64,000 bases of DNA from Patescibacteria group bacterium (GTDB taxonomy: Bacteria > Patescibacteriota > Microgenomatia > UBA8517), in contig DAITMO010000001.1 of NCBI GenBank assembly GCA_036835125.1, positions 127,508 through 191,507 on the forward strand, read 5' to 3'. Shown here one piece after another: positions 12,948 through 61,110 of the stretch. The position numbers and the translations under genes are program-made. How positions within the stretch are numbered: the stretch's first letter is position 1; every line of letters starts with the position of its first letter. Under the pieces are notes generated by a model. That model was not told where the DNA came from and ran no database searches. It saw only the letters and a list, made by a program, of their open reading frames with translations.

Positions 12948-12979
12948 ATTACATTCAGTTTAAAGTATAATCAACCTAT

Positions 12980-45496: not shown

Positions 45497-46933
45497 TTGC
45501 TTCACAAATCTAAAAATAAAATGGATAAAAATAATACAAATCAAACGCGTCCACCCATTGTAGTTGTACTTGGGCATGTTGATCATGGAAAAACAACACT
45601 CCTTGACGCAATAAGAAAAACCAATGTAACAGCAAAGGAAGCTGGTGGAATTACTCAAAAAATTGGGGCCTCTGTAGTTGAAACAAAAGAAGGCAAAAAA
45701 ATAACATTCATTGATACTCCAGGACACGCTGCTTTTACCAAGATGAGAGGAAGAGGGGCCCAAGTTGCAGATATTGCAGTTTTGGTTGTAGCCCAAGACG
45801 ATGGAGTCAAACCTCAAACAAAAGAAGCTTTGGAAATAATTAAAGAAACAGGTATTCCCTTCATTGTTGCAGGAACAAAATCTGATGTAGCAGGAGTCAG
45901 TGCCGAGAAGCTTCAAGGGGAACTTGAAAAAGAAGAAGTCTATTTTGAAGGAAGAGGAGGAAACATTCCTTTTGTCTCAGTCTCAGCAAGAAATAGTACT
46001 GGAATAACAGAACTTTTAGAAATGCTCACCCTAATGGCAGACGTTGCAGAACTTAAAGGAGATCCTAACGCCCCAGTTGAAGCAGTAGTTATTGAATCAG
46101 GAAAAGATAAAATGGGATCTACCGCCACAGTTGTTGTAAGACAGGGAAGCATAAAAGTGGGAGAGGCAGTGTTTGCAGAGGAGCTACCTTGTAAAGTTAG
46201 AGCCCTATTTGATGATAAAGGAAAGGGAATTAAGGAAGTCACTCCCGGCCTCCCTGCAGGAGTTTTTGGTTTTACTGATGTTCCAACAGTTGGGGCTACA
46301 GTTCTTTCTATGCCCCATAAAGGTGAAGAAGTTGAAAAAAAGGTAAGAGGAACATTTGATTTAAGACGTTTAAAAGACGATGAAATTCCTGTAATTATAA
46401 AAGCTGATAATGCAGGTTCCCTTGAAGCTATTATTGCTTCCCTTCCACCAAGAATTGTTGTTGTTGGTCAGGGGGTGGGAGACGTGACAGCAAGTGACAT
46501 AATTGATGCAAAAACAGGAAATGCCTATGTATTTGTATTTGAAGCAAAAATACCAAATGACATAGTTAAGCTTGCAGAAGCGGAAAAGATAAAGGTTGAA
46601 AGATTCCAAATTATTTATGAGCTCTTGCAAAAGTTGGATGAAATCCTCAAAAAAGGACAGGTTATAGAGCTTGGACACGCAGAAGTTTTAGCAAGCTTCC
46701 CATTTGATCACAAGAAGGTTGCAGGATGTAAAGTAATTGATGGAAGGTTGTCAAAAGGCGACGCACTTATTATTAAAAGAGAAGATAAAGAAATAGGCAA
46801 AGGTAAAGCAACTTCTCTTAGAAAACAAAAAACTGAAGTAGCAAGTGTAGGTCAATCAGAAGAATTTGGTGTGATAATAGATCCCCAACTTGATTTTCAG
46901 GTAGGAGATATAATAACTTCAATCTCCAAATAA
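45497..46933 (+). CDS. infB: translation initiation factor IF-2 (short form lacking N-terminal domains)
   Basis: G domain [34 protein letters not shown]-like GTKSD. The last 8 codons lie inside a duplicated segment (see findings). Confidence 0.92.
46887..46933 (+). repeat. direct repeat copy A (22-bp perfect core aacttgattttcaggtaggaga + divergent in-frame infB tail)
   Basis: The 22-bp core is identical to 49860-49881. The continuation encodes DIITSISK* for copy A and DVIVSVAR* for copy B. Confidence 0.8.
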
Positions 46934-46962
46934 TTGACTTCAAAGCCTTCCTGGCGTACACT
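46934..46962 (+). promoter_or_regulatory. candidate sigma70 promoter for DGR target gene (TTGACT, 17 nt spacer, TACACT)
   Basis: TTGACT at 46934-46939 and TACACT at 46957-46962. A short hairpin ccgcaaaagcgg at 47033-47044 and a GAAAGGAAG RBS precede the ATG at 47062. Confidence 0.45.
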
Positions 46963-47061
46963 ATGGGTCTGTACATTGAAATTTAAAGTGCGAGGGGGCC
47001 TAATACTCCAAGGTTTGGAGTAATTTTTATATCCGCAAAAGCGGAAGAAAGGAAGTGTGCG

Positions 47062-47973
47062 ATGACAACTAATAAGTTGATCACGCAAGGTCAGGTAAGG
47101 CAGATCACAGGTTTTGGGGCTGACGTAATTGAGAAGGTTCTCGATGATCTTGGGCTTGATAAAAAAGGCGCCCAGGCTGTCATCGGCCGTGGTGGTGAGT
47201 TTGGAAGTTTAATTATGCCTTCCATACTCTCTGCGCTACAGAGCCTTTCAGTTTCTGAACGGTTCAAAGATGAAGAAGTTGATTCCAGATATGGATATCT
47301 CTCCGGTTATAAACCGAAGGGTTTGAATGAACAAATGAACCAACTTCGAATCCTGTTTCCAGGCATAGGATTTTGCAATCAAGATCTGTTCACACAGATC
47401 GAGAGAGATGACGTCAAATTGCCAAAACATGCCGAAGGTTGGTTTGCCATCCCCAACTGGATGAGAAACCCGCAGATTTTTGGTACGACCTACAGTGATG
47501 CCCTTCTCAAAGTGCTTAATATGATCAAAAAAGCCAGAAACGGCAAGTTTTACAACTACCGTGAAGGTCAGATAAACGAGAAGAACATTCACCAGTCGGA
47601 CCGAACCAGGGAGTTTTGGAAAAAACTCTCAAATGATCAGGGAAATCCTGATATTTTGATTGTTCCTGCACAGTTTGGCATCCGTCACCGTGGTCGATCT
47701 GTTCGACGCGCTTGCGAAATTTTTGTCGGGAACGAATTCGGTCTTGGCGCATTTGCTGTTGGTGTTATGATCCTGACGCACCCTGAACGTCTTCAGAATT
47801 TTGACGATCTTTGGATCGACTGCGCGGGTGATGAATTTGCAGCAAATGCCGATGGCGACTGTTCGAGGGCTCCATATTTCGGGTTCGGCGATAGTGATAT
47901 CAAGGTTGGCACGGGATGGGTTGACGATGCGGATTCGGATTATGGTTCGGCATCGGGGTTCCTTCCGCAGTAA
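47062..47973 (+). CDS. DGR target (variable) protein; C-terminal variable region
   Basis: 303-aa ORF with noticeably higher GC than its surroundings. Its last about 41 codons (47847-47970) are duplicated downstream as the template repeat, with differences at TR adenines. Confidence 0.75.
   Translation: MTTNKLITQGQVRQITGFGADVIEKVLDDLGLDKKGAQAVIGRGGEFGSLIMPSILSALQSLSVSERFKDEEVDSRYGYLSGYKPKGLNEQMNQLRILFPGIGFCNQDLFTQIERDDVKLPKHAEGWFAIPNWMRNPQIFGTTYSDALLKVLNMIKKARNGKFYNYREGQINEKNIHQSDRTREFWKKLSNDQGNPDILIVPAQFGIRHRGRSVRRACEIFVGNEFGLGAFAVGVMILTHPERLQNFDDLWIDCAGDEFAANADGDCSRAPYFGFGDSDIKVGTGWVDDADSDYGSASGFLPQ
47847..47970 (+). repeat. DGR variable repeat (VR)
   Basis: 124-bp near-copy of 48358-48481. 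There are 12 mismatches, and 10 of them are A in TR to G/C in VR. Template Asn codons AAC/AAT correspond to GGC/GAT in the VR. Confidence 0.85.
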
Positions 47974-48033
47974 ATTTTGGTATTTGGATACTTGAGTCTT
48001 TTTGATTTTTTGATATCTTGTGTCCGCCAATTT

Positions 48034-48069
48034 GGGGGTTATTCGCAATGTGCAATATGAATAACCCCC
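48034..48069 (+). terminator. GC-rich hairpin (10-bp perfect stem gggggttatt/aataaccccc, 16-nt loop) followed by T-tract; terminator and/or DGR cruciform element
   Basis: The stem is at 48034-48043 and 48060-48069, followed by gttttatttctt. It lies 60 nt downstream of the target gene stop. Confidence 0.6.
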
Positions 48070-48357
48070 GTTTTATTTCTTCAAAATAATTTTGATATAC
48101 TAATATGGGTTTTGGCTAGTGAACAACAGTTTAAGAATTGTTGTCGCCAAATTCTCCTTATAAACAACCAGAATTTTAGTGATTACCGGTTTCTAAAAGT
48201 GTGTTGTACTGAGGGGAGATACTGCTTATTTCTATCTAGTGCAGATTTCTACTTTGTTAGGATGCTGCCAAATAAAATACAAGATAAAGAAGATATAAAT
48301 TTATTACAGTAAACTTCAATATCTGGTGAGAAAAGATGGATGGAAATAATATTTTGT

Positions 48358-48481
48358 TGCCGATGGCGACTTTTCGAAGGCTCCATATTTCAGGTTCAAC
48401 GATAGTGATATCAAATTTGACACGGAATGGGTTGACAATGCGAATTCGAATTATGGTTCGGCATCGGGGTTCCTTCCGAAG
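48358..48481 (+). repeat. DGR template repeat (TR)
   Basis: Noncoding copy of the VR that carries adenines at all but two mismatch positions. It lies between the target gene and the avd/RT genes. Confidence 0.85.
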
Positions 48482-48499
48482 TTTCTCCCCTGAGTGACT

Positions 48500-48868
48500 T
48501 TAGATAGTTGAACGCAACCACCCCCCTAACATACGTCCAATTTCGTCAAGTTTTTCTTGAAGATAAATATATTTATTAATATTAATTATTTTTGTGTCTT
48601 TTGCCAATCTAACCAAAATTTTTAGCATATTAAGTTTGTGACTAGTATTCTCCAATATTTCCAATTTTTTGATTTTGGAAGAAGAAGTTGTTGTCAAAAT
48701 TCCCTCTAAAATTTCTAAAGTTGTATTTTCTACCCTTTGCCAAATGGTACAACGGTCTTGTTTTGGAATCGAATTTCTAAGTTTGTGAATTTCTTTATAC
48801 ACTTCATATGTTTGTATAAAAATGGGTGTGTCAAAAAATTCCGACATAATATGAAAATTTATCTTCAA
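48500..48868 (-). CDS. avd: four-helix-bundle protein (Avd-like accessory variability determinant, TIGR02436 / 23S rRNA IVS protein family)
   Basis: 122 aa. FIQTYEVYKEIHKLRNSIPKQDRCTIWQRVENTTLEILEGI fits the four-helix-bundle family that accompanies DGR RTs. It sits between the TR and the RT on the opposite strand. Confidence 0.65.
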   Translation of the reverse strand: MKINFHIMSEFFDTPIFIQTYEVYKEIHKLRNSIPKQDRCTIWQRVENTTLEILEGILTTTSSSKIKKLEILENTSHKLNMLKILVRLAKDTKIININKYIYLQEKLDEIGRMLGGWLRSTI

Positions 48869-48891
48869 AAAGAAAATTTTCTGACAAATTC

Positions 48892-49860
48892 ATGAAAATT
48901 TATAGAAATGTCTTTGAGAAAATAGTTACTTTGGAAAACCTACTTAATGCTTGGAAAGACTTCAGTCATGATAAACGAAAGAAAAAAGATGTTCAAGGGT
49001 TTGAAATTAAACTTGAAGAAAATATTTTTGAGCTTTATAGAGAATTGAAGGCTGGAAATTATAAACATAGCTCATATAAACCTTTTTATATTCAAGACCC
49101 AAAACAGAGACTGATTCATAAAGCAAGTGTTCGAGATAGAATCGTTCATCATGCGATTTATTCAATTCTAAATCCCATTTTTGAATCTATGTTTATTGCA
49201 AATTCTTTTTCCTGCAGAGTTGGAAAAGGAACACATAAAGGAGTTGAAACTTTAAGAAATATGTTAAGAAAGGTTAGCAAAAACGATACTAGAAAATGTT
49301 TTGCTTTAAAGTGTGATATCAAGAAGTTTTTTGATAGCATTGACCACAAAATTTTAATGGAAATTTTATGTAAAAAAATTAAAGACAATAATGTTAGTGG
49401 GCTGCTATCCGAAATTGTTGAAAGTTACCACCCAAAAGGAATGGGAATTCCTATTGGCAATTTAACTTCACAGATTTTTGCAAACATTTATCTAAATGAA
49501 TTTGACCAGTTTATAAAACATAAGCTAAAAGTAAAAAATTATATTCGTTATACAGATGACTTTATTATAGTTAGCAATAACAAAAATTATTTAGAGAGTT
49601 TGATTTATCCGATAGATAATTTTTTAAAATTGAATCTTAAATTATTTCTCCATCCTCAGAAAACTTTGGTTAGAAAATATTCTCAAGGGATAGATTTTTT
49701 GGGATATGTAATTTTCCCACATTATTTAGTATTAAGAACAAAAACAAAGAAAAGGGTTTTCCAAAGGATAAATAACAAAAATCTTCCCTCATATTTAGGT
49801 GTTTTATCGCATGCGAATAGCTATGAGTTGACGAAAAGACTAATTTTCTTGGTAACTTAA
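48892..49860 (+). CDS. DGR-type reverse transcriptase
   Basis: RT motifs 1-7 are present: PKQRLIHKASVRDRIVHHA, SFSCRVGKGTHKG, KCDIKKFFDSIDH, the DGR-specific GIPIGNLTSQIFANIYLNEFD (I/LGxxxSQ), RYTDDFII (YxDD) and LHPQKT. Confidence 0.9.
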   Translation: MKIYRNVFEKIVTLENLLNAWKDFSHDKRKKKDVQGFEIKLEENIFELYRELKAGNYKHSSYKPFYIQDPKQRLIHKASVRDRIVHHAIYSILNPIFESMFIANSFSCRVGKGTHKGVETLRNMLRKVSKNDTRKCFALKCDIKKFFDSIDHKILMEILCKKIKDNNVSGLLSEIVESYHPKGMGIPIGNLTSQIFANIYLNEFDQFIKHKLKVKNYIRYTDDFIIVSNNKNYLESLIYPIDNFLKLNLKLFLHPQKTLVRKYSQGIDFLGYVIFPHYLVLRTKTKKRVFQRINNKNLPSYLGVLSHANSYELTKRLIFLVT

Positions 49861-49906
49861 ACTTGATTTTCAGGTAGGAGACGTGATAGTATCGGTCGCT
49901 AGGTAA
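49860..49906 (+). repeat. direct repeat copy B (22-bp core + alternative in-frame infB 3' end, DVIVSVAR*)
   Basis: Identical to 46887-46908 over 22 bp. The next 25 nt are about 50% identical to copy A, yet they keep the IF-2 reading frame and a stop codon. Confidence 0.8.
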
Positions 49907-49941
49907 TTAGGTTTGTAATCTGCCTCATTTTTAATATATAA

Positions 49942-50904
49942 ATGGAAAATTCTCTTTTATCTTTAATAGATTCTGCGTCTTCAGTTCTTGTTGTTTTGCC
50001 AAATAAACCCTATTTTGATCAAGTTGCAGCTGGTCTTTCCCTTTATCTCTCGATCCATGACAGGAAAGACGTAAATATCTATTGTCCAGCCCCAATGATG
50101 GTTGGATTCAATAGACTCATAGGAATAGACAAGATCTCAGAGGAAATGGGAAAGAAAAACTTAACCATAAAATTTGCAGGATTTGATGCAGCCAACATCG
50201 ATAAAGTGGGATACGATATTGAAAATGGAGAATTCAAACTCACAGTAACTCCAAAATCAGGCTTTACCTCCCCAACAAAAGAACAAATAGTAACAGATTA
50301 TTCAGGAGTTTCAGCAGACTTAGTGATCCTTATTGGTGGAGCAAATGACAGTCACTTCCCGATTTTAGAAAATGCAGATTTGGCAAACTCAAAAATTGCA
50401 CACATTGGAACAAGAGTACTGGAAGCAAAGCGAGAAATCCTTTCCTTTGCAAAACCAGGTTCAACAACAAGTGAGTTAGTAGCAAGTATTATTAAAGACA
50501 ATAATCTTCCAGTAGATCCAGACGTTGCAACAAACTTAGTAATGGGAATTGAAGATGGAAGTAGTAACTTTAGTGGGAGCGAAGTAACTCCTGAGACTTT
50601 TGAAACATTTGCATACTTACTTAGAAATGGTGGTCAAAGAATTCCAAAAGTTAAGCTTTCCCCCGCAAGCTTCCCAGCAGGAGCAATTCCAGCCAAGCCA
50701 TACAATCAACCAGTAAGACAAGAGACTCCAAAGGTTCAACCAATAGCACAGGTAGAAGATCAAAGAGAGTCGGTAACTCCTGTTGCCCAAGTAGAAACAC
50801 AACCAAATAGACCATCGGGTGAGATGGGAATTGAAACCCCAGAAATCAATCCACCAGACGATTGGCTTCAACCAAAGATTTTTAAGGGAACTAACGTAAG
50901 CTAA
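49942..50904 (+). CDS. hypothetical protein, possibly degenerate DHH/NrnA-like, with Pro/Gln-rich C-terminal tail
   Basis: Its position after infB matches conserved infB-rbfA-DHH synteny. There is weak similarity to the DHH family N-terminus, and the canonical DHH residues are not evident. Confidence 0.3.
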   Translation: MENSLLSLIDSASSVLVVLPNKPYFDQVAAGLSLYLSIHDRKDVNIYCPAPMMVGFNRLIGIDKISEEMGKKNLTIKFAGFDAANIDKVGYDIENGEFKLTVTPKSGFTSPTKEQIVTDYSGVSADLVILIGGANDSHFPILENADLANSKIAHIGTRVLEAKREILSFAKPGSTTSELVASIIKDNNLPVDPDVATNLVMGIEDGSSNFSGSEVTPETFETFAYLLRNGGQRIPKVKLSPASFPAGAIPAKPYNQPVRQETPKVQPIAQVEDQRESVTPVAQVETQPNRPSGEMGIETPEINPPDDWLQPKIFKGTNVS

Positions 50905-51033
50905 CTTCAATAAACTTGCAAATTATCCTGTAGTTGTCCTATACTTCCCCCAGTTCTTTAAAATGTTAAGGGACCCCTCAGCTTGCGGGAAGCAAGAAAT
51001 TTCTGAGCTATAAGCTCAAGAAAGGTTTGGTGT

Positions 51034-51609
51034 GTGATGAAGTACGGTAATTTTACATTGGGTCAGATCGAAGCTGGAATCAATAAAATTGGAGGGGAAG
51101 ACAATTGGATGAAATTGCTCAAGGGAGAACTGAAAGTTGTTCCTGTTGACAAAGAATCAACTGGTAAAACTGCCAAGATATTTTATCCAAAAAGAGTTTT
51201 TCGATCTAAAAAGGGTTTGTATGTTAGTTCGAACTTCATTAACAAGATCGTAGAAGTTGCTAAGCCAACAGAGGCTGGAAGGATATTTCTAGAAGTATCT
51301 TATGTGAAACTGACAAAATCTGTTACTGGTAAAGAACTCTTGCTAGATAACATGGATCAAGTTTGGGACTCAACCATCTTTTGCTTATGGTTAAATACCA
51401 AATTGAAACAACAATCAAATGGTCAAAATGGATCTTTCCTTACCAATGGTTGTGGAAATCTTTTTCTAGTTGGAAGAATTGACATAAAGGTCTTTGTTGT
51501 CAGCGTCAGCTGGAATTCGATCCCTCGGAAGTGGTACGTCAGCGCTTGGGATCTAGGCTACGGATGGAATGCTGGTAATCGCTTCTTCTCGAAACCGATT
51601 GTTTTTTGA
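51034..51609 (+). CDS. hypothetical protein
   Basis: 191 aa with no recognised family. Its 3' end is compositionally GC-richer. Confidence 0.3.
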   Translation: MMKYGNFTLGQIEAGINKIGGEDNWMKLLKGELKVVPVDKESTGKTAKIFYPKRVFRSKKGLYVSSNFINKIVEVAKPTEAGRIFLEVSYVKLTKSVTGKELLLDNMDQVWDSTIFCLWLNTKLKQQSNGQNGSFLTNGCGNLFLVGRIDIKVFVVSVSWNSIPRKWYVSAWDLGYGWNAGNRFFSKPIVF

Positions 51610-51645
51610 GCCTTTGGCCTTTTGAAAAATTGGTGGTACAAATAA

Positions 51646-51693
51646 CCCCTGATTTGTTGTCATTATGACATTAAGATCAGGGGTTTTCTTTTG
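51646..51693 (+). terminator. rho-independent terminator
   Basis: Stem cccctgat at 51646-51653 pairs with atcagggg at 51676-51683. An inner gtcat/atgac stem is present. It is followed by TTTTCTTTT. Confidence 0.6.
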
Positions 51694-51800
51694 GTTGAAA
51701 ATTTTAACCTTTGTGTTTTAGCTTTGAATGTGGTAATATACCAAAGATGAAATCAAAGTTTATCTTGAAATAGCTTTACATTGATTCTCATGACACAAAT

Positions 51801-57308: not shown

Positions 57309-58973
57309 ATGAAAAATAATTCAAACAAATTGAAATTCATTGCGTTATCCGGAACCACTGGAGTTACCGAGAATTTATATGTATATGAGTATGGAAACGA
57401 TATGATAATTGTTGACTGTGGCGTGGGTTTTCCAGATAGTGATATGTTTGGGGTAGATCTTGTAATTCCTGATTTCTCATACATTATTCAAAATAAAAAT
57501 AAATTAAGGGGAATTCTAATTTCTCATGGTCACGAAGATCACCTTGGAGCTCTTCCATTTTTACTAAAAGAGATAAATGTACCAATTTATTCTTCAAAAT
57601 TGGTCGCAGGTTTTATTCAAGATAAATTTGACGATTATGAAATGAAAACTCCAGACTTGAAAGTATTTGACCCAGAGCGTGATGTTTTGACACTTGGAGT
57701 TTTCAAAGTAACTCCATTTAGGGTAGCCCACTCAGTTCCTGATGGGGTTGGATTTTGTATTGACACCCCTGAGGGAAAGGTATTCCATGTACCAGATTAT
57801 AAATTTGACTGGACTCCGGTGGACGGCAAACCATTTGATGCAGTGAAAGCTGCAACATTAGCATCAGGTGGAGTATTAGCACTTGCCTCAGACGCTCTTG
57901 GTTCAACATCCCCTGGATATACAGAAAGTGAAAAAGAACTAGAAGACAGGATTGAAACAGTTGCTAGAAAAGTTAAAGGCAAAATTTACTTAACTACAAT
58001 TTCATCAAATATAAGTCGTATGCAACAAACAATAAATGTTGCCCAAAGACTTGGAAGAAAGGTTGTTCTTATTGGTCGCTCTATTGAAAGAAAAGCTCAA
58101 ATCGCAAAAGACCTAGGTTACCTTTTCTATCCAGAGGGTGTGGTTGTTAAGCCCAAGCAAGTAGGAAGGATTCAACCAAACCAAGTCCTTTACATAATTT
58201 CTGGTTGTTATGGGCAGTCAGGGAGTGCACTTTATAGACTTATCACAGGAGAACATGATTTTCTAACAATTGGAAAAGGAGATGCTGTGATATTTTCAGC
58301 TGACCCTGCTCCTCCTGGAAGCAAAGCAAATGTTGATTATTTAGTAGATAAACTAATTGAAGACAACATTGACGTTCATTATTATGATACCCAGGAAGAT
58401 CTTCATGTATCAGGTCATGGTTGTCAAAAAGATATTGAAATGCTTTTTGCGCTTGTTAAACCAAAATATTTCATCCCAATTGGTGGAACTGTAAGACACA
58501 TGAGGTCCTATGGACTCATTGCTCGAAGTATGGGAGCGAAGGAAGAAGAAGTTTTGGAGTTGGAACCAGGAGATATTGTTGAGTTTTCAGGTGGTTATGC
58601 AAAAGAAGCGGGAAGAATACCTGTAAAAGAAATATTGGTAGATGGACTTGGAATTGGGGATGTTGGAAATGTTGTGTTAAGGGATCGTCATATTCTTTCC
58701 AAAGAAGGAATAGTAATTGCACTAATACATTTTGATAGAAATGAGAATATTCTTACAGAAACTCCAGAAATATTGAGTCGTGGTTTTGTTTTTGAACAAA
58801 AATATGGAAGAGTTTTAGAAGACGCAGGCCGTGAACTTGTAAAAGCCCTAACTAAAAAGAAAAAAATCAATTCAAATATTGTTAAAAACATTGCAATAGA
58901 TTTCCTGGAAAGATATTTCTTCCAAAAAACAGGCAGACGTCCCATGATTCTTCCAGTTGTTGTTGAGGTTTAA
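57309..58973 (+). CDS. rnj: ribonuclease J
   Basis: Metallo-beta-lactamase motif ILISHGHEDHLGALP and a beta-CASP domain (HVSGHGCQKDIEMLF). The length and C-terminal domain are typical of RNase J. Confidence 0.88.
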   Translation: MKNNSNKLKFIALSGTTGVTENLYVYEYGNDMIIVDCGVGFPDSDMFGVDLVIPDFSYIIQNKNKLRGILISHGHEDHLGALPFLLKEINVPIYSSKLVAGFIQDKFDDYEMKTPDLKVFDPERDVLTLGVFKVTPFRVAHSVPDGVGFCIDTPEGKVFHVPDYKFDWTPVDGKPFDAVKAATLASGGVLALASDALGSTSPGYTESEKELEDRIETVARKVKGKIYLTTISSNISRMQQTINVAQRLGRKVVLIGRSIERKAQIAKDLGYLFYPEGVVVKPKQVGRIQPNQVLYIISGCYGQSGSALYRLITGEHDFLTIGKGDAVIFSADPAPPGSKANVDYLVDKLIEDNIDVHYYDTQEDLHVSGHGCQKDIEMLFALVKPKYFIPIGGTVRHMRSYGLIARSMGAKEEEVLELEPGDIVEFSGGYAKEAGRIPVKEILVDGLGIGDVGNVVLRDRHILSKEGIVIALIHFDRNENILTETPEILSRGFVFEQKYGRVLEDAGRELVKALTKKKKINSNIVKNIAIDFLERYFFQKTGRRPMILPVVVEV

Positions 58974-59001
58974 GCCTACTTCGATATACAATTACTTACG
59001 T

Positions 59002-61110
59002 ATGGCCAAAAGAAAAAGATTTACCAAAAGAGCTTTTAAGTTAAAACTTAAAAAGGAATCTGTTTTTTCTATTTCTCAAATAATATTTTTTACTTTAGCA
59101 GGTCTTATTCTTGTTTCTTTTTCTCGTCAGGGAATGATCCTTTTAGGTTTTAATGATTTTCTTTTGAAATATTTTGCTTGGTCATCTATTCTTTTGCCAT
59201 TTATTTTTCTTTCTTTTGCATTTCTTCTTTCAAAAACAAAATTTATTTTAGGTCAACCTAATGTAATTGTAGGAGGGCTCCTTTTCTTTATCTCAGTAAT
59301 GTCGTTGGGACAGGCTGGGATAGTAGGAAAAACATTTTGGGAAGCAATTGCTACTCTTGTAATGGGGGTTGGGGCAGGAATCATATTTGCAGGAGTCGGA
59401 TTTATTGGGCTAATTATTCTTTTTAATACTTCAATTGATGCAGTTTATAAAATTTTCAAAGAATTCTTAAGGAAAGCAGGAATTTATATTCATGGAGATA
59501 AAACACAAATCAAAATTGGTGGTGTTGGTATGACCAAAGGACAACTTAAAGTTAGTGGAGGAAATTTTAATACAAACGATGCAAATAAAGGAACAGCTCC
59601 AGTAGCAACTTTGTCTAAGGAACCCCTTGAGCAGAAACTTGTGAGTAACATTCCAGGAGAAGAGACGGTTTGGAAATATCCGTCAATTGACATTTTGGGT
59701 GGAACTGACGGTGGACATGCTGATCGTGGTGACATTAAAGGAAATGCTGCAACAATTGAAAAAACTCTTGAATCTTTTGGAATTACTGCAAATGTTGTTG
59801 AGGTAAACCTTGGGCCCGCGGTCACCCAGTATGCAATTGAGGTGGCTCTTGGCACAAAACTTTCAAAAATTACTTCGCTGGAACGTGACTTGGCATTAGC
59901 TCTTTCTGCTCCAACTGGAACCATCAGAATTGAGGCTCCAATTCCAGGCCGCAACCTTGTCGGAATTGAGCTTCCCAATAGATCCCCTGAATTTGTTCCT
60001 CTTAGGAAGATTATGGAAGCAGAAGAAATGCAGGGAGCAAAATCCAAGCTCATGGTTTCTTTGGGGTTGGATGTTTCCGGAAAACCAATTGTTGCCAATA
60101 TTGGAAAAATGCCACATGTTCTTATAGCAGGACAAACTGGTAGTGGTAAATCTGTTTGTATTAATGCATTTTTAGCATCTCTTCTTTTTAGAGCAGCTCC
60201 CACAGAAGTGAAGTTCATTCTTGTTGATCCTAAGCGAGTTGAATTAACTCCATATAACGGTTTGCCGCATTTATTATCTCCTGTTATCGTAGAACCTGAA
60301 AAAGTTATTTCAGCCCTTCGTTGGCTTATGGCTGAGATGGATAGACGCTATAAACTATTTGCTCAAGCAGGAGCAAGAAACATTGAAAGCTATAATGAGA
60401 TGTCTGGTTTTCAGGCACTTCCCTATATCGTTCTTTTCATTGATGAGCTTGCAGATATCATGCTTTTCTCTCCGGTTGAAGTTGAAGACGCAATTACTCG
60501 TATTGCACAAATGTCTAGGGCAACTGGAATACACATGGTACTAGCTACACAGCGACCTTCAGTTGATGTTATTACAGGTTTAATTAAAGCCAATGTTCCT
60601 TCTCGTATTGCATTTGCAGTTTCTTCTCAAATTGACTCAAGAGTAATTTTAGACACTCAGGGAGCAGAGAAACTTCTTGGAAAGGGAGACATGCTTTACC
60701 TTCCTCCAGAACAAGCAAAACCTTTAAGAATTCAAGGAGCATTCATTGGGGATAAAGAAATAGGGAGTTTAATATCCTTCCTTAAAAATCAGGGAATTGA
60801 AACTCAATATACTGAAGAAGTTACAACAATGGCAAAAGCAGGAAGTGTTTCAGTTGCAGGAGTTGGTGGGGAAGTTGATGATTTCTTCAAAGAAGCGGTT
60901 AAAGTAGTTTGCCAGTATGATAGAGCTTCTGCCTCCCTTCTTCAAAGAAGGCTTTCAATAGGTTATGCAAGGGCAGCAAGAATTGTTGACCAACTTGAAG
61001 CAGCGGGAGTAATTGCTCCAAGTGATGGAACTAGTAAACCTCGTGAAGTTTTAGTTCAAAACGCTGAAGAATTTTTAGCTTCTTCAGGAAATCCTCCTGC
61101 TCAGGAATAA
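59002..61110 (+). CDS. ftsK: DNA translocase FtsK/SpoIIIE
   Basis: Four N-terminal TM segments. Motor domain with Walker A IAGQTGSGKS, Walker B LFIDELADIM and MVLATQRPSVDVI. C-terminal gamma winged helix (LLQRRLSIGYARAARIVDQLEAAGVI). The start MAKRKRF at 59002 is preferred over 58957. Confidence 0.9.
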   Translation: MAKRKRFTKRAFKLKLKKESVFSISQIIFFTLAGLILVSFSRQGMILLGFNDFLLKYFAWSSILLPFIFLSFAFLLSKTKFILGQPNVIVGGLLFFISVMSLGQAGIVGKTFWEAIATLVMGVGAGIIFAGVGFIGLIILFNTSIDAVYKIFKEFLRKAGIYIHGDKTQIKIGGVGMTKGQLKVSGGNFNTNDANKGTAPVATLSKEPLEQKLVSNIPGEETVWKYPSIDILGGTDGGHADRGDIKGNAATIEKTLESFGITANVVEVNLGPAVTQYAIEVALGTKLSKITSLERDLALALSAPTGTIRIEAPIPGRNLVGIELPNRSPEFVPLRKIMEAEEMQGAKSKLMVSLGLDVSGKPIVANIGKMPHVLIAGQTGSGKSVCINAFLASLLFRAAPTEVKFILVDPKRVELTPYNGLPHLLSPVIVEPEKVISALRWLMAEMDRRYKLFAQAGARNIESYNEMSGFQALPYIVLFIDELADIMLFSPVEVEDAITRIAQMSRATGIHMVLATQRPSVDVITGLIKANVPSRIAFAVSSQIDSRVILDTQGAEKLLGKGDMLYLPPEQAKPLRIQGAFIGDKEIGSLISFLKNQGIETQYTEEVTTMAKAGSVSVAGVGGEVDDFFKEAVKVVCQYDRASASLLQRRLSIGYARAARIVDQLEAAGVIAPSDGTSKPREVLVQNAEEFLASSGNPPAQE

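Follow-up and report, generated by a model that had tools for sequence, protein, structure and literature searches.

Diversity-generating retroelements (DGRs) of candidate phyla radiation (CPR)/Patescibacteria genomes are very abundant and are described as 'frequently transferred between genomes' (PMC8144416). DGRs are also described as having 'fixed mobility' or as riding phages, plasmids, and conjugative elements (PMC8867640, PMC8144416). The transfer vehicle and the junction structure of chromosomal CPR DGRs are not given in accessible papers (cf. PMC8144416). In the Escherichia coli element e14, which lies in icd, the gene continues into the element to reach its working end, and the far junction carries a homologous C-terminal fragment, the icdC pseudogene (PMC13626634). 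Excision of e14 recombines both ends and yields a functional chimeric icd with conservative substitutions (PMC13626634, citing Hill et al. 1989). Cis-mobilizable elements (CIMEs) keep attL and attR and are devoid of integration or transfer genes (PMC5704250). Here we analyze a 64,000-nucleotide (nt) stretch of a Patescibacteria group bacterium ("the window," to which all window coordinates refer), in which a compact DGR cassette lies at the 3′ end of infB, the gene for IF-2. Two copies of a 22-bp sequence flank this cassette. These copies are probably the junction scars of its insertion into the last 16 codons of infB through a short-homology exchange carried out by host functions.

The first-pass annotation of this DNA reported a perfect 22-bp direct repeat whose copies both continue in frame into IF-2-like tails, and repeat searches and translation confirm both statements. 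The 22-mer AACTTGATTTTCAGGTAGGAGA has exactly two copies in the window, A and B, both on the + strand and spaced by 2,973 bp (Table 1). No further match was found in the 64 kb even with three mismatches allowed. Two matches were seen in 0 of 100 dinucleotide-preserving shuffles of the window, and by our estimate some 22-mer would repeat by chance in a 64-kb sequence with a probability of ∼1e-4. Copy A lies in the infB frame (open reading frame [ORF] 45497/45521 to 46933) and encodes LDFQVGD followed by IITSISK-stop. Copy B encodes (K)LDFQVGD-VIVSVAR-stop (49862–49906, with the stop codon at 49904–49906). It has no start codon and is in frame +1 relative to the reverse transcriptase (RT) gene, and its first base is the final base of the RT stop codon TAA (49858–49860). 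The seven amino acid differences between the tails (DIITSISK and DVIVSVAR) are all conservative, indicating that both are IF-2 ends. Ungapped similarity between the copies extends to 49 nt at 76% identity (46887–46935 versus 49860–49908), past both stop codons and a following TT, and beyond the 22 identical nt the copies differ at 12 of 27 positions.

Four other origins of this arrangement were rejected. An assembly artifact is ruled out because three other, independent public assemblies of the same organism (L001, L009, and L010) are identical to the window across the region. A chance repeat, or one resembling a terminator or a repetitive extragenic palindromic (REP) element, is ruled out by the two window copies, by the shuffles, and by the finding that the core occurs elsewhere once per locus, within infB ends. 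Gradual divergence of a tandem or target-site duplication is ruled out by the step from 22 identical nt to 12 differences in 27; all change sits in copy A, which is under selection, and the relic copy B matches relatives. Finally, DGR-type A-to-N mutagenesis between the tails is ruled out, since neither copy has an adenine at 5 of the 12 differences.

Genomes that lack the insert indicate which tail is native. Going by the names attached to its IF-2 homologues, the organism belongs to the Microgenomates group of CPR bacteria. The closest relatives with retrievable gene context are L002/L003 and L004/L005, whose IF-2 proteins are 83% and 80% identical to that of the window. In these genomes, as in L006–L008, there is one repeat copy and no insert, and infB runs directly into a homologue of the 320-amino-acid (aa) gene that follows copy B in the window. 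In L002 and L004 this homologue is followed by rpsO and pnp. At the DNA level, the native infB ends of relatives (gacgtgTtagtatcggtcgct...) are almost the same as copy B (gacgtgAtagtatcggtcgct). Those of L002 (aacttgatttccaggtgggtgacgtgttagtatcggtcgct...) and L004 (aacttgattttgctcccggtgatgtgttagtatcggtcgca...) match copy B (...gacgtgatagtatcggtcgctaggtaa) almost base for base and are unlike copy A past the core. Among the best 120 IF-2 homologue clusters, 118 carry a B-type tail, GDV[IL][VL]SV[AST][KR] or a close variant, and the A-type ...SISK tail is confined to the cluster of the window (P0001/P0241) and to cluster P0021. Since the ends of relatives match copy B and nearly all clusters are B-type, tail B is judged native and tail A brought in. 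Copy B is thus the displaced native infB end, and tail A came with the 2,973-bp insert, which supplies the last 8 codons and the stop codon of the window infB. The earlier proposal of an integrative insertion at the infB 3′ end that brings a replacement end, leaving one foreign IF-2 tail, is therefore supported by the comparison with DGR-less relatives that it had called for, and tail A is the foreign one.

It had also called for a search for the core elsewhere. In metagenome and genome collections the exact 22-mer is found only in single copy, within the infB end of a further Patescibacteria lineage whose site is unoccupied (L006–L008), and viral contigs contain none. Because the core is found solely in infB ends, the repeat is infB coding sequence and not a dispersed element of the REP or terminator kind. 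A search through the protein cluster recovered no empty allele from the same species; the sole other member of P0001 also carries tail A.

The relic in copy B contains a weak promoter-like sequence (window 49863–49892), TTGATT-N18-TAGTAT, that matches 8 of 12 consensus positions and lies upstream of the 320-aa gene. Both AACTTGATTT and TAGTAT are kept at synonymous positions in the native infB end across lineages. Such a site in the native infB end could account for the retention and conservation of the relic.

The infB site is occupied in a second lineage as well. In cluster P0021 (contig L018/L019; IF-2 78% identical to that of the window), infB ends in ...aacttgatttt gta gtt ggt gac acg atc att tca atc tcc aaa taa, which encodes a DTIISISK-stop tail. 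L018 shares TCAATCTCCAAATAATT with the window and then has the same TTGACT-N17-TACACT promoter directly after the infB stop codon, the same leader (74% nt identity), and a 233-aa homologue of the window target protein (41% aa identity). The cassette is decayed: the template repeat (TR), avd, and RT are missing, and the promoter, leader, and target gene are kept between the copies. The first-pass annotation had named DGR-less genomes with both repeat copies as evidence against an insertion, and L018 is such a genome only in appearance. After a hairpin, L018 has a B-type relic, aacttgattttcaagtgggggacgtgatagtatctgtctctaagtaa (2615–2661), which encodes LDFQVGDVIVSVSK-stop and is followed by the conserved downstream gene. 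This relic (AACTTGATTTTCAAGTGGGGGACGTGATAGTATCTGTCTCTAAGTAA) has its left boundary at the same base as window copy B. The two L018 copies are identical over the first 11 nt only, which places the switch from host-like to cassette-like sequence at a different point than in the window.

The window and L018 do not belong to sister lineages. The nearest cluster of P0001 is P0002 and that of P0021 is P0003, both with B-type tails, and the smallest neighbor-joining clade that holds both occupied lineages includes 15 B-type clusters (15 of 17 with the native tail). By the 320-aa protein and PNPase, too, L018 falls outside the group formed by the window, L002, and L004. Similarity between the infB genes of the window and L018 is flat towards the core (72%–73% nt), and no donor tract was found in infB upstream of the core. 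The intergenic DNA past the relic is 58% identical, and the relic matches at 43 of 49 nt (88%), with 4 of the 6 differences synonymous. The lack of a rise in infB similarity, together with the low identity of the intergenic DNA, indicates that exchange took place at the repeat itself and not in long flanks. Either the infB site has been occupied at least twice by related A-tail cassettes, or one old insertion was precisely removed many times. In both histories, the repeats are the place of exchange.

The insert is a complete DGR and nothing else, in the order promoter, leader, target gene with variable repeat (VR), GC-rich hairpin, TR, bAvd gene (− strand), and RT gene. An early estimate of about 2.95 kb containing the DGR alone, with no integrase, is borne out. 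No integrase, transposase, or recombinase was found between the repeats by ORF listing and Pfam and NCBIfam searches, in which the sole Pfam domains are bAvd and RVT_1, and repeat analysis revealed no terminal inverted repeats joining the two ends of the insert. The cargo has the defining features of a DGR, namely an RT, a TR/VR pair with adenine-biased mismatches, and Avd. The bAvd protein scores 68 bits with Pfam (cutoff 40) and 78.3 bits with NCBIfam DivGenRetAVD, just below the cutoff of 80. For the RT, the closest NCBIfam model is a group II RT, with a score below its cutoff, and thousands of CPR RT homologues occur in the same gene layout. Across the four assemblies, the VR differs at one position only, a TR-adenine site at 47968, where L001 has A and the window, L009, and L010 have C; all other adenine-site mismatches between TR and VR read G in the VR. 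The leader is the best-conserved part of the cassette, with 90% nt identity to that of L011 (L011 6280–6381) versus 72% nt for the RT. Its three hairpins are kept in five cassettes (including those of the window, L011, L017, L018, and L132) with few compensatory changes, and it matches no Rfam family.

No group II intron or other ribozyme RNA flanking the RT was found in Rfam searches by gathering threshold and by E-value. The sole Rfam match is a subthreshold one to RT-6 RNA at 48657–48732 (+), antisense to avd and upstream of the RT gene (20.9 bits versus a gathering score of 46.7; E=0.2). In addition, a 28-nt inverted repeat with 79% complementarity (48551–48578 and 48847–48874) brackets most of avd.

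RT homologues 65%–74% identical to that of the window sit in the same compact cassette elsewhere in related chromosomes. Approximately 10 cassettes were examined, which is a small sample (occupied loci: the window, L011, L013–L018, and L125–L132). They share a plan of promoter, leader, target, TR, avd (− strand), and RT, and no recombinase gene lies beside any of those examined. In L011, the cassette is located between rnj (RNase J) and ftsK. The window rnj (57309–58973) adjoins ftsK (58957–61110), with flanks 93%–97% identical in DNA to those of L011, and the window therefore holds the empty site for the L011 cassette. The empty sequence is gttgttgttgaggttTAAgcctac, the left junction of L011 is gttgttgttgaggttTGActttttgatc, and its right junction is aaagggtgttgaggttTAAgcctac. 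An 11-nt host segment, TGTTGAGGTTT, is present on both sides. On the left it is followed by GA and then cttttt, creating a new stop codon, TGA, inside the −35 box (TTGACT) of the cassette; on the right it stands between aaaggg and AAgcctac. The native rnj stop codon now lies at the right junction, where it terminates the RT ORF (...GVEV-stop). An 11-mer shared by chance between two 60-nt segments has an expectation of ∼8e-4.

A cassette also occupies the secA end in L129. Its left copy, AAACACTGTCACTACCCCAAG, leads into a new tail, VHQGD-stop, with TTGACT 12 nt further on, and the RT ORF continues into the right copy, AAACATTGTCATTACCCCAAG-atgccgaatTAA (...FKHCHYPKMPN-stop). In L125, a cassette downstream of secA is accompanied by a decayed copy of the same secA relic. 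A further site, between a 502-aa gene and an epimerase gene, is occupied in L013, L014–L017, L127, and L132 and empty in the window; here the RT stop codon falls in a host TATAAT box. Repeat length is 11 nt in L011, 11 perfect nt within 49 nt of homeology in L018, 22 within 49 in the window, and 21 with two mismatches in L129. Past ...SYLGVLSHANS.x.L, the RT C termini of this subfamily vary, which would follow from right junctions that each arose within the RT 3′ end. The window RT and leader are closest to those of L011 (74% aa and 90% nt), and its target belongs to the family of L018 and L132, not to that of L011 and L013. Judged by these affinities, the cassettes are modular. Related cassettes are present in the same layout at the ends of infB, rnj, and secA, which means that they have been gained or lost as discrete units. 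The suggestion that the DGR is, or was, carried on a mobile cassette thus gains support from the second occupied infB site and from related cassettes at three other sites, two of which are empty in the window.

Some of these small genomes carry other selfish elements. In L013 (12971–13933) and L017 (14584 onward), a LAGLIDADG-domain ORF lies beside a tRNA synthetase gene, and an intein (Hint) is present in a UvrD/AddB-like helicase.

Table 1. Features of the infB cassette, its repeats, and the empty cassette sites in the window
Feature	Coordinates	Strand	Basis
Empty site for L013/L017/L127/L132 cassettes; 32-nt intergenic segment, 502-aa gene (− strand)/epimerase gene	12948..12979		Comparison
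infB (IF-2, 470 aa from ATG 45521, the start in public gene calls; ORF listing starts at TTG 45497)	45521..46933	+	ORF list; homologues with Pfam GTP_EFTU and IF-2 domains
Repeat copy A (attL-like core), encodes (Q)LDFQVG(D) of IF-2	46887..46908	+	Sequence, repeat search
Cassette-borne replacement tail A, (D)IITSISK and TAA	46909..46933	+	13/25 nt identical to native tail (homeologous)
Promoter TTGACT-N17-TACACT, sigma-70-type, begins on the base after the infB stop codon	46934..46962	+	Kept at left end of L011, L013, L017, L018, L125, L129, L132 cassettes
Leader (5′ UTR), ∼100 nt, three hairpins, ends GAAAGGAAGTGTGCG before ATG	46963..47061	+	90% nt identity to L011; five-cassette alignment and consensus fold
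DGR target gene, 303 aa, no Pfam domain	47062..47973	+	VR at 3′ end
VR, 125 nt	47847..47971	+	Ends 2 nt ahead of target gene stop codon
GC-stem hairpin then T-rich run, 3′ of VR	48034..48069	+	Read from sequence; equivalent hairpin after target gene in L018, L132
TR, 125 nt	48358..48482	+	13 mismatches to VR, 11/13 at TR adenines
bAvd accessory gene, 115 aa (ATG 48847) or 122 aa (TTG 48868)	48500..48868	−	Pfam bAvd E=1.2e-18
DGR reverse transcriptase, 322 aa	48892..49860	+	Pfam RVT_1 E=2.2e-24; homologues
Repeat copy B (attR-like core)	49860..49881	+	Sequence, repeat search
Displaced native infB tail, (D)VIVSVAR and TAA, now non-coding relic	49882..49906	+	Near-identical to functional infB ends of L002/L004; IF-2 homologue consensus
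Conserved 320-aa gene, directly 3′ of infB in genomes without the insert	49942..50904	+	Context comparison
Empty site of L011-type cassette; rnj 3′ end TGTTGAGGTTT and stop codon, single copy	58961..58973	+	Comparison with L011

A second small insertion is present at 50905–51700 and is absent from L002, L004, and L018. It contains an ORF (51034–51609, 191 aa) with its own promoter-like sequence, TTGCAA-N17-TATACT, a leader that ends in GAAAGGTTTGGTGTGTGATG, and a hairpin and T-run after the ORF. The GAAAGGTTTGGTGTGTGATG motif is the same as in the leader of the DGR target; it has two matches in the window versus 0 expected. The ORF has no Pfam or NCBIfam match. Its candidacy as a second target of this TR was rejected, since it lacks a TR-like repeat and does not resemble target proteins.

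The layout observed at infB is host gene, repeat, new tail, cassette, repeat, old tail. The working infB is finished by the left copy and tail A, and the right copy and tail B have been pushed 3 kb downstream, where they are untranslated. A single reciprocal crossover between chromosomal infB and a circular (or tandem) form of the cassette with an infB-like segment of ∼49 nt would produce this arrangement, which is to say a Campbell-type insertion. The agent would be host (or trans-acting) recombination at short homology. The circle could derive from the reverse reaction, or from an imprecise excision that captured the end of a neighboring gene. If the two copies recombined, the cassette would be excised and native infB restored. 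The empty junction expected after such an event is ...GATCCCCAACTTGATTTTCAGGTAGGAGACGTGATAGTATCGG..., with GATCCCCAACTTGATTTTCAGGTAGGAGACGTGATAGTATCGGTCGC as the attB-like sequence, and the expected circle junction is ...CTTGGTAACTTAAACTTGATTTTCAGGTAGGAGATATAATAACTTC..., with TTTCTTGGTAACTTAAACTTGATTTTCAGGTAGGAGATATAATAACTTC as the attP-like sequence. Any imprecise deletion would truncate essential infB and may therefore tend to anchor the cassette. The use of three unrelated target sequences, the varying repeat lengths (11, 11–22, and 21 nt), and the differing crossover point make short homology handled by host functions likelier than a sequence-specific integrase.

Several points weigh against this proposal. 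Recombination at 11–22 nt of homology is inefficient for RecA. Conservation of the relic between the window and L018 (43/49 nt) could reflect a promoter in the native infB end and not recency. The manner in which a cassette first acquired a copy of a target-gene tail is not explained by these data. Neither a circular or excised form nor an empty allele of the same species was seen in the scanned metagenome and genome collections, from which this species is absent. Lastly, there may have been a single old insertion followed by many precise losses.

This last possibility is the best supported of four rival explanations, followed in decreasing order of support by a trans-acting recombinase, passive spread with flanking DNA, and RT-dependent insertion. 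If one ancient insertion per site was inherited vertically and repeatedly deleted between the direct repeats, then the cassette need not be mobile at present. We regard this history as unlikely but worth serious attention. Each site has its own RT lineage, with RTs at the intergenic site ending ...KD[IV] and those at the secA site ending ...SG.SG.FD, and divergence between the window and L018 cassettes (target 41% aa identity, leader 74% nt) is equal to or greater than that between their hosts (IF-2 78% aa). The left boundary of copy B is also identical in the two. However, many independent exact losses would be needed, given the 15 of 17 clusters with the native tail in the smallest joint clade. 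A non-coding relic that is 88% identical, with four of six differences synonymous, beside intergenic DNA at 58% is likewise difficult to reconcile with such a history, as is the difference in occupied site between the window and L011, which are ∼95% identical in their flanks. The fixed left boundary of copy B could also point to a non-autonomous integrative element, akin to a CIME or satellite. A tyrosine or serine recombinase, supplied by a helper or from elsewhere in the genome, would then act on its att-like repeats. An integrase-mediated 3′-end insertion with a replacement end has exactly this layout, as for e14 in icd/icdC (PMC13626634), and the infB-like tail has been kept through at least two occupied lineages. 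We nevertheless consider a recombinase acting in trans improbable. None of the cassettes examined has a recombinase gene beside it, the infB, rnj, and secA cores have no common motif and are unequal in length, the crossover may lie anywhere in 22 nt in the window versus within the first 11 nt in L018, and the right ends of the cassettes fall at differing points in the RT 3′ end.

The remaining rivals have less in their favor. CPR bacteria commonly encode DNA-uptake genes, and an occupied site could in principle spread passively, by transformation and homologous recombination in long flanking genes from occupied donors, after an unrelated illegitimate event had made the repeat once. This scenario fits the site-specific RT lineages and requires no element-encoded function. 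It has little probability in our view because no donor tract is evident, with infB similarity between the window and L018 flat towards the insert and the downstream intergenic DNA at 58%, and because the duplicated-gene-end layout at three different sites is left unexplained. Mobility that depends on the RT, in which the enzyme copies a cassette transcript and the cDNA is joined to the 3′ ends of highly expressed genes by target priming or template switching, is very improbable. Variable repeat length and the absence of a target motif are features of target-primed insertion, the right junction is always inside the RT 3′ end, and insertion is into the 3′ ends of highly expressed genes in the same orientation. 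Yet the promoter (−35 and −10) is at the extreme left edge of the unit, where it would be outside its own transcript, and there is no detectable intron or ribozyme RNA; these two features disfavor the idea. The antisense orientation of avd and the lack of a poly-A or other 3′-end signature are further difficulties, and the A-type tail would need homology-guided joining anyway.

Returning to insertion by short-homology exchange, the locus and its relatives provide occupied and empty sites, resolved to the base pair, for a DGR-only unit of ∼3 kb. Such units are found repeatedly in the 3′ ends of essential genes, with the genes kept intact. DGR transfer in uncultivated CPR bacteria thereby becomes directly testable. 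The arrangement suggests a route by which a cassette may resist loss, which is to become the supplier of the end of an essential gene, and it implies that the working IF-2 C terminus of this organism is not ancestral. A more speculative extension, to which we attach a low likelihood, is that compact DGR cassettes form a self-contained class of mobile elements without an integrase, in which a sequence that mimics the final codons of an essential gene (infB or secA) guides homing to the 3′ end of that gene, possibly aided by the cassette's own RT and Avd acting on cassette-length nucleic acid. If integrase-free homing is real, then cellular DGRs, usually seen as immobile 'domesticated' retroelements, would still move by themselves.

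Among known systems, the cellular DGRs of CPR/Patescibacteria (RT clade 2; Roux et al. 2021) resemble the cargo in RT, bAvd, TR, VR, and adenine-biased mismatches. Their targets are ∼300-aa proteins without recognizable domains (PMC8144416), as is the case here. We found no evidence for a phage or plasmid carrier: the best RT in viral contigs is 49%–54% identical, viral matches of 16–17 nt are attributable to chance, and plasmid and phage BLAST searches returned short RT-motif matches only. As in transposons and insertion sequences, direct repeats of host sequence flank the insert. In contrast to those elements, the infB cassette has no transposase and no terminal inverted repeats, and repeat length is not constant among cassettes. 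Moreover, the left copy at infB and at secA runs into a diverged homologous tail, so these repeats are not products of target-site duplication.

CIMEs as well as integrative and mobilizable elements (IMEs) of Firmicutes that target gene 3′ ends are also comparable; in CIMEs, as here, attL/attR-like repeats are present and an integrase is absent. However, CIMEs decay from integrative and conjugative elements or IMEs and have integrase-bearing relatives at the same site, and none was found at the four cassette sites in this small sample. The infB cassette is instead a complete compact DGR whose ends coincide with a promoter and the RT stop codon. Prophage e14 in icd/icdC is the nearest known parallel. 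The likeness to e14 and phage 21 lies in an element within the 3′ end of a housekeeping gene and a displaced native end at the far junction. Target-derived direct repeats, a substitute 3′ end, a displaced native end, and single-copy empty sites (L002–L008) are all present at infB. An element-encoded integrase next to the att site is absent, and for this reason the infB cassette is not placed in the integrase-type family. Whereas the 15-kb prophage e14 encodes an integrase and undergoes SOS-induced excision, the infB cassette is 2.97 kb, carries a DGR only, has a 22-nt identical core, and is known here from its sequence alone. The accessible literature yielded no account of a bare DGR that has defined junctions, matched empty sites, and a substitute essential-gene end. 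What is known, therefore, is the DGR type of the cargo and the integrase-type insertion layout; what appears to be new is a bare DGR as the whole inserted unit.

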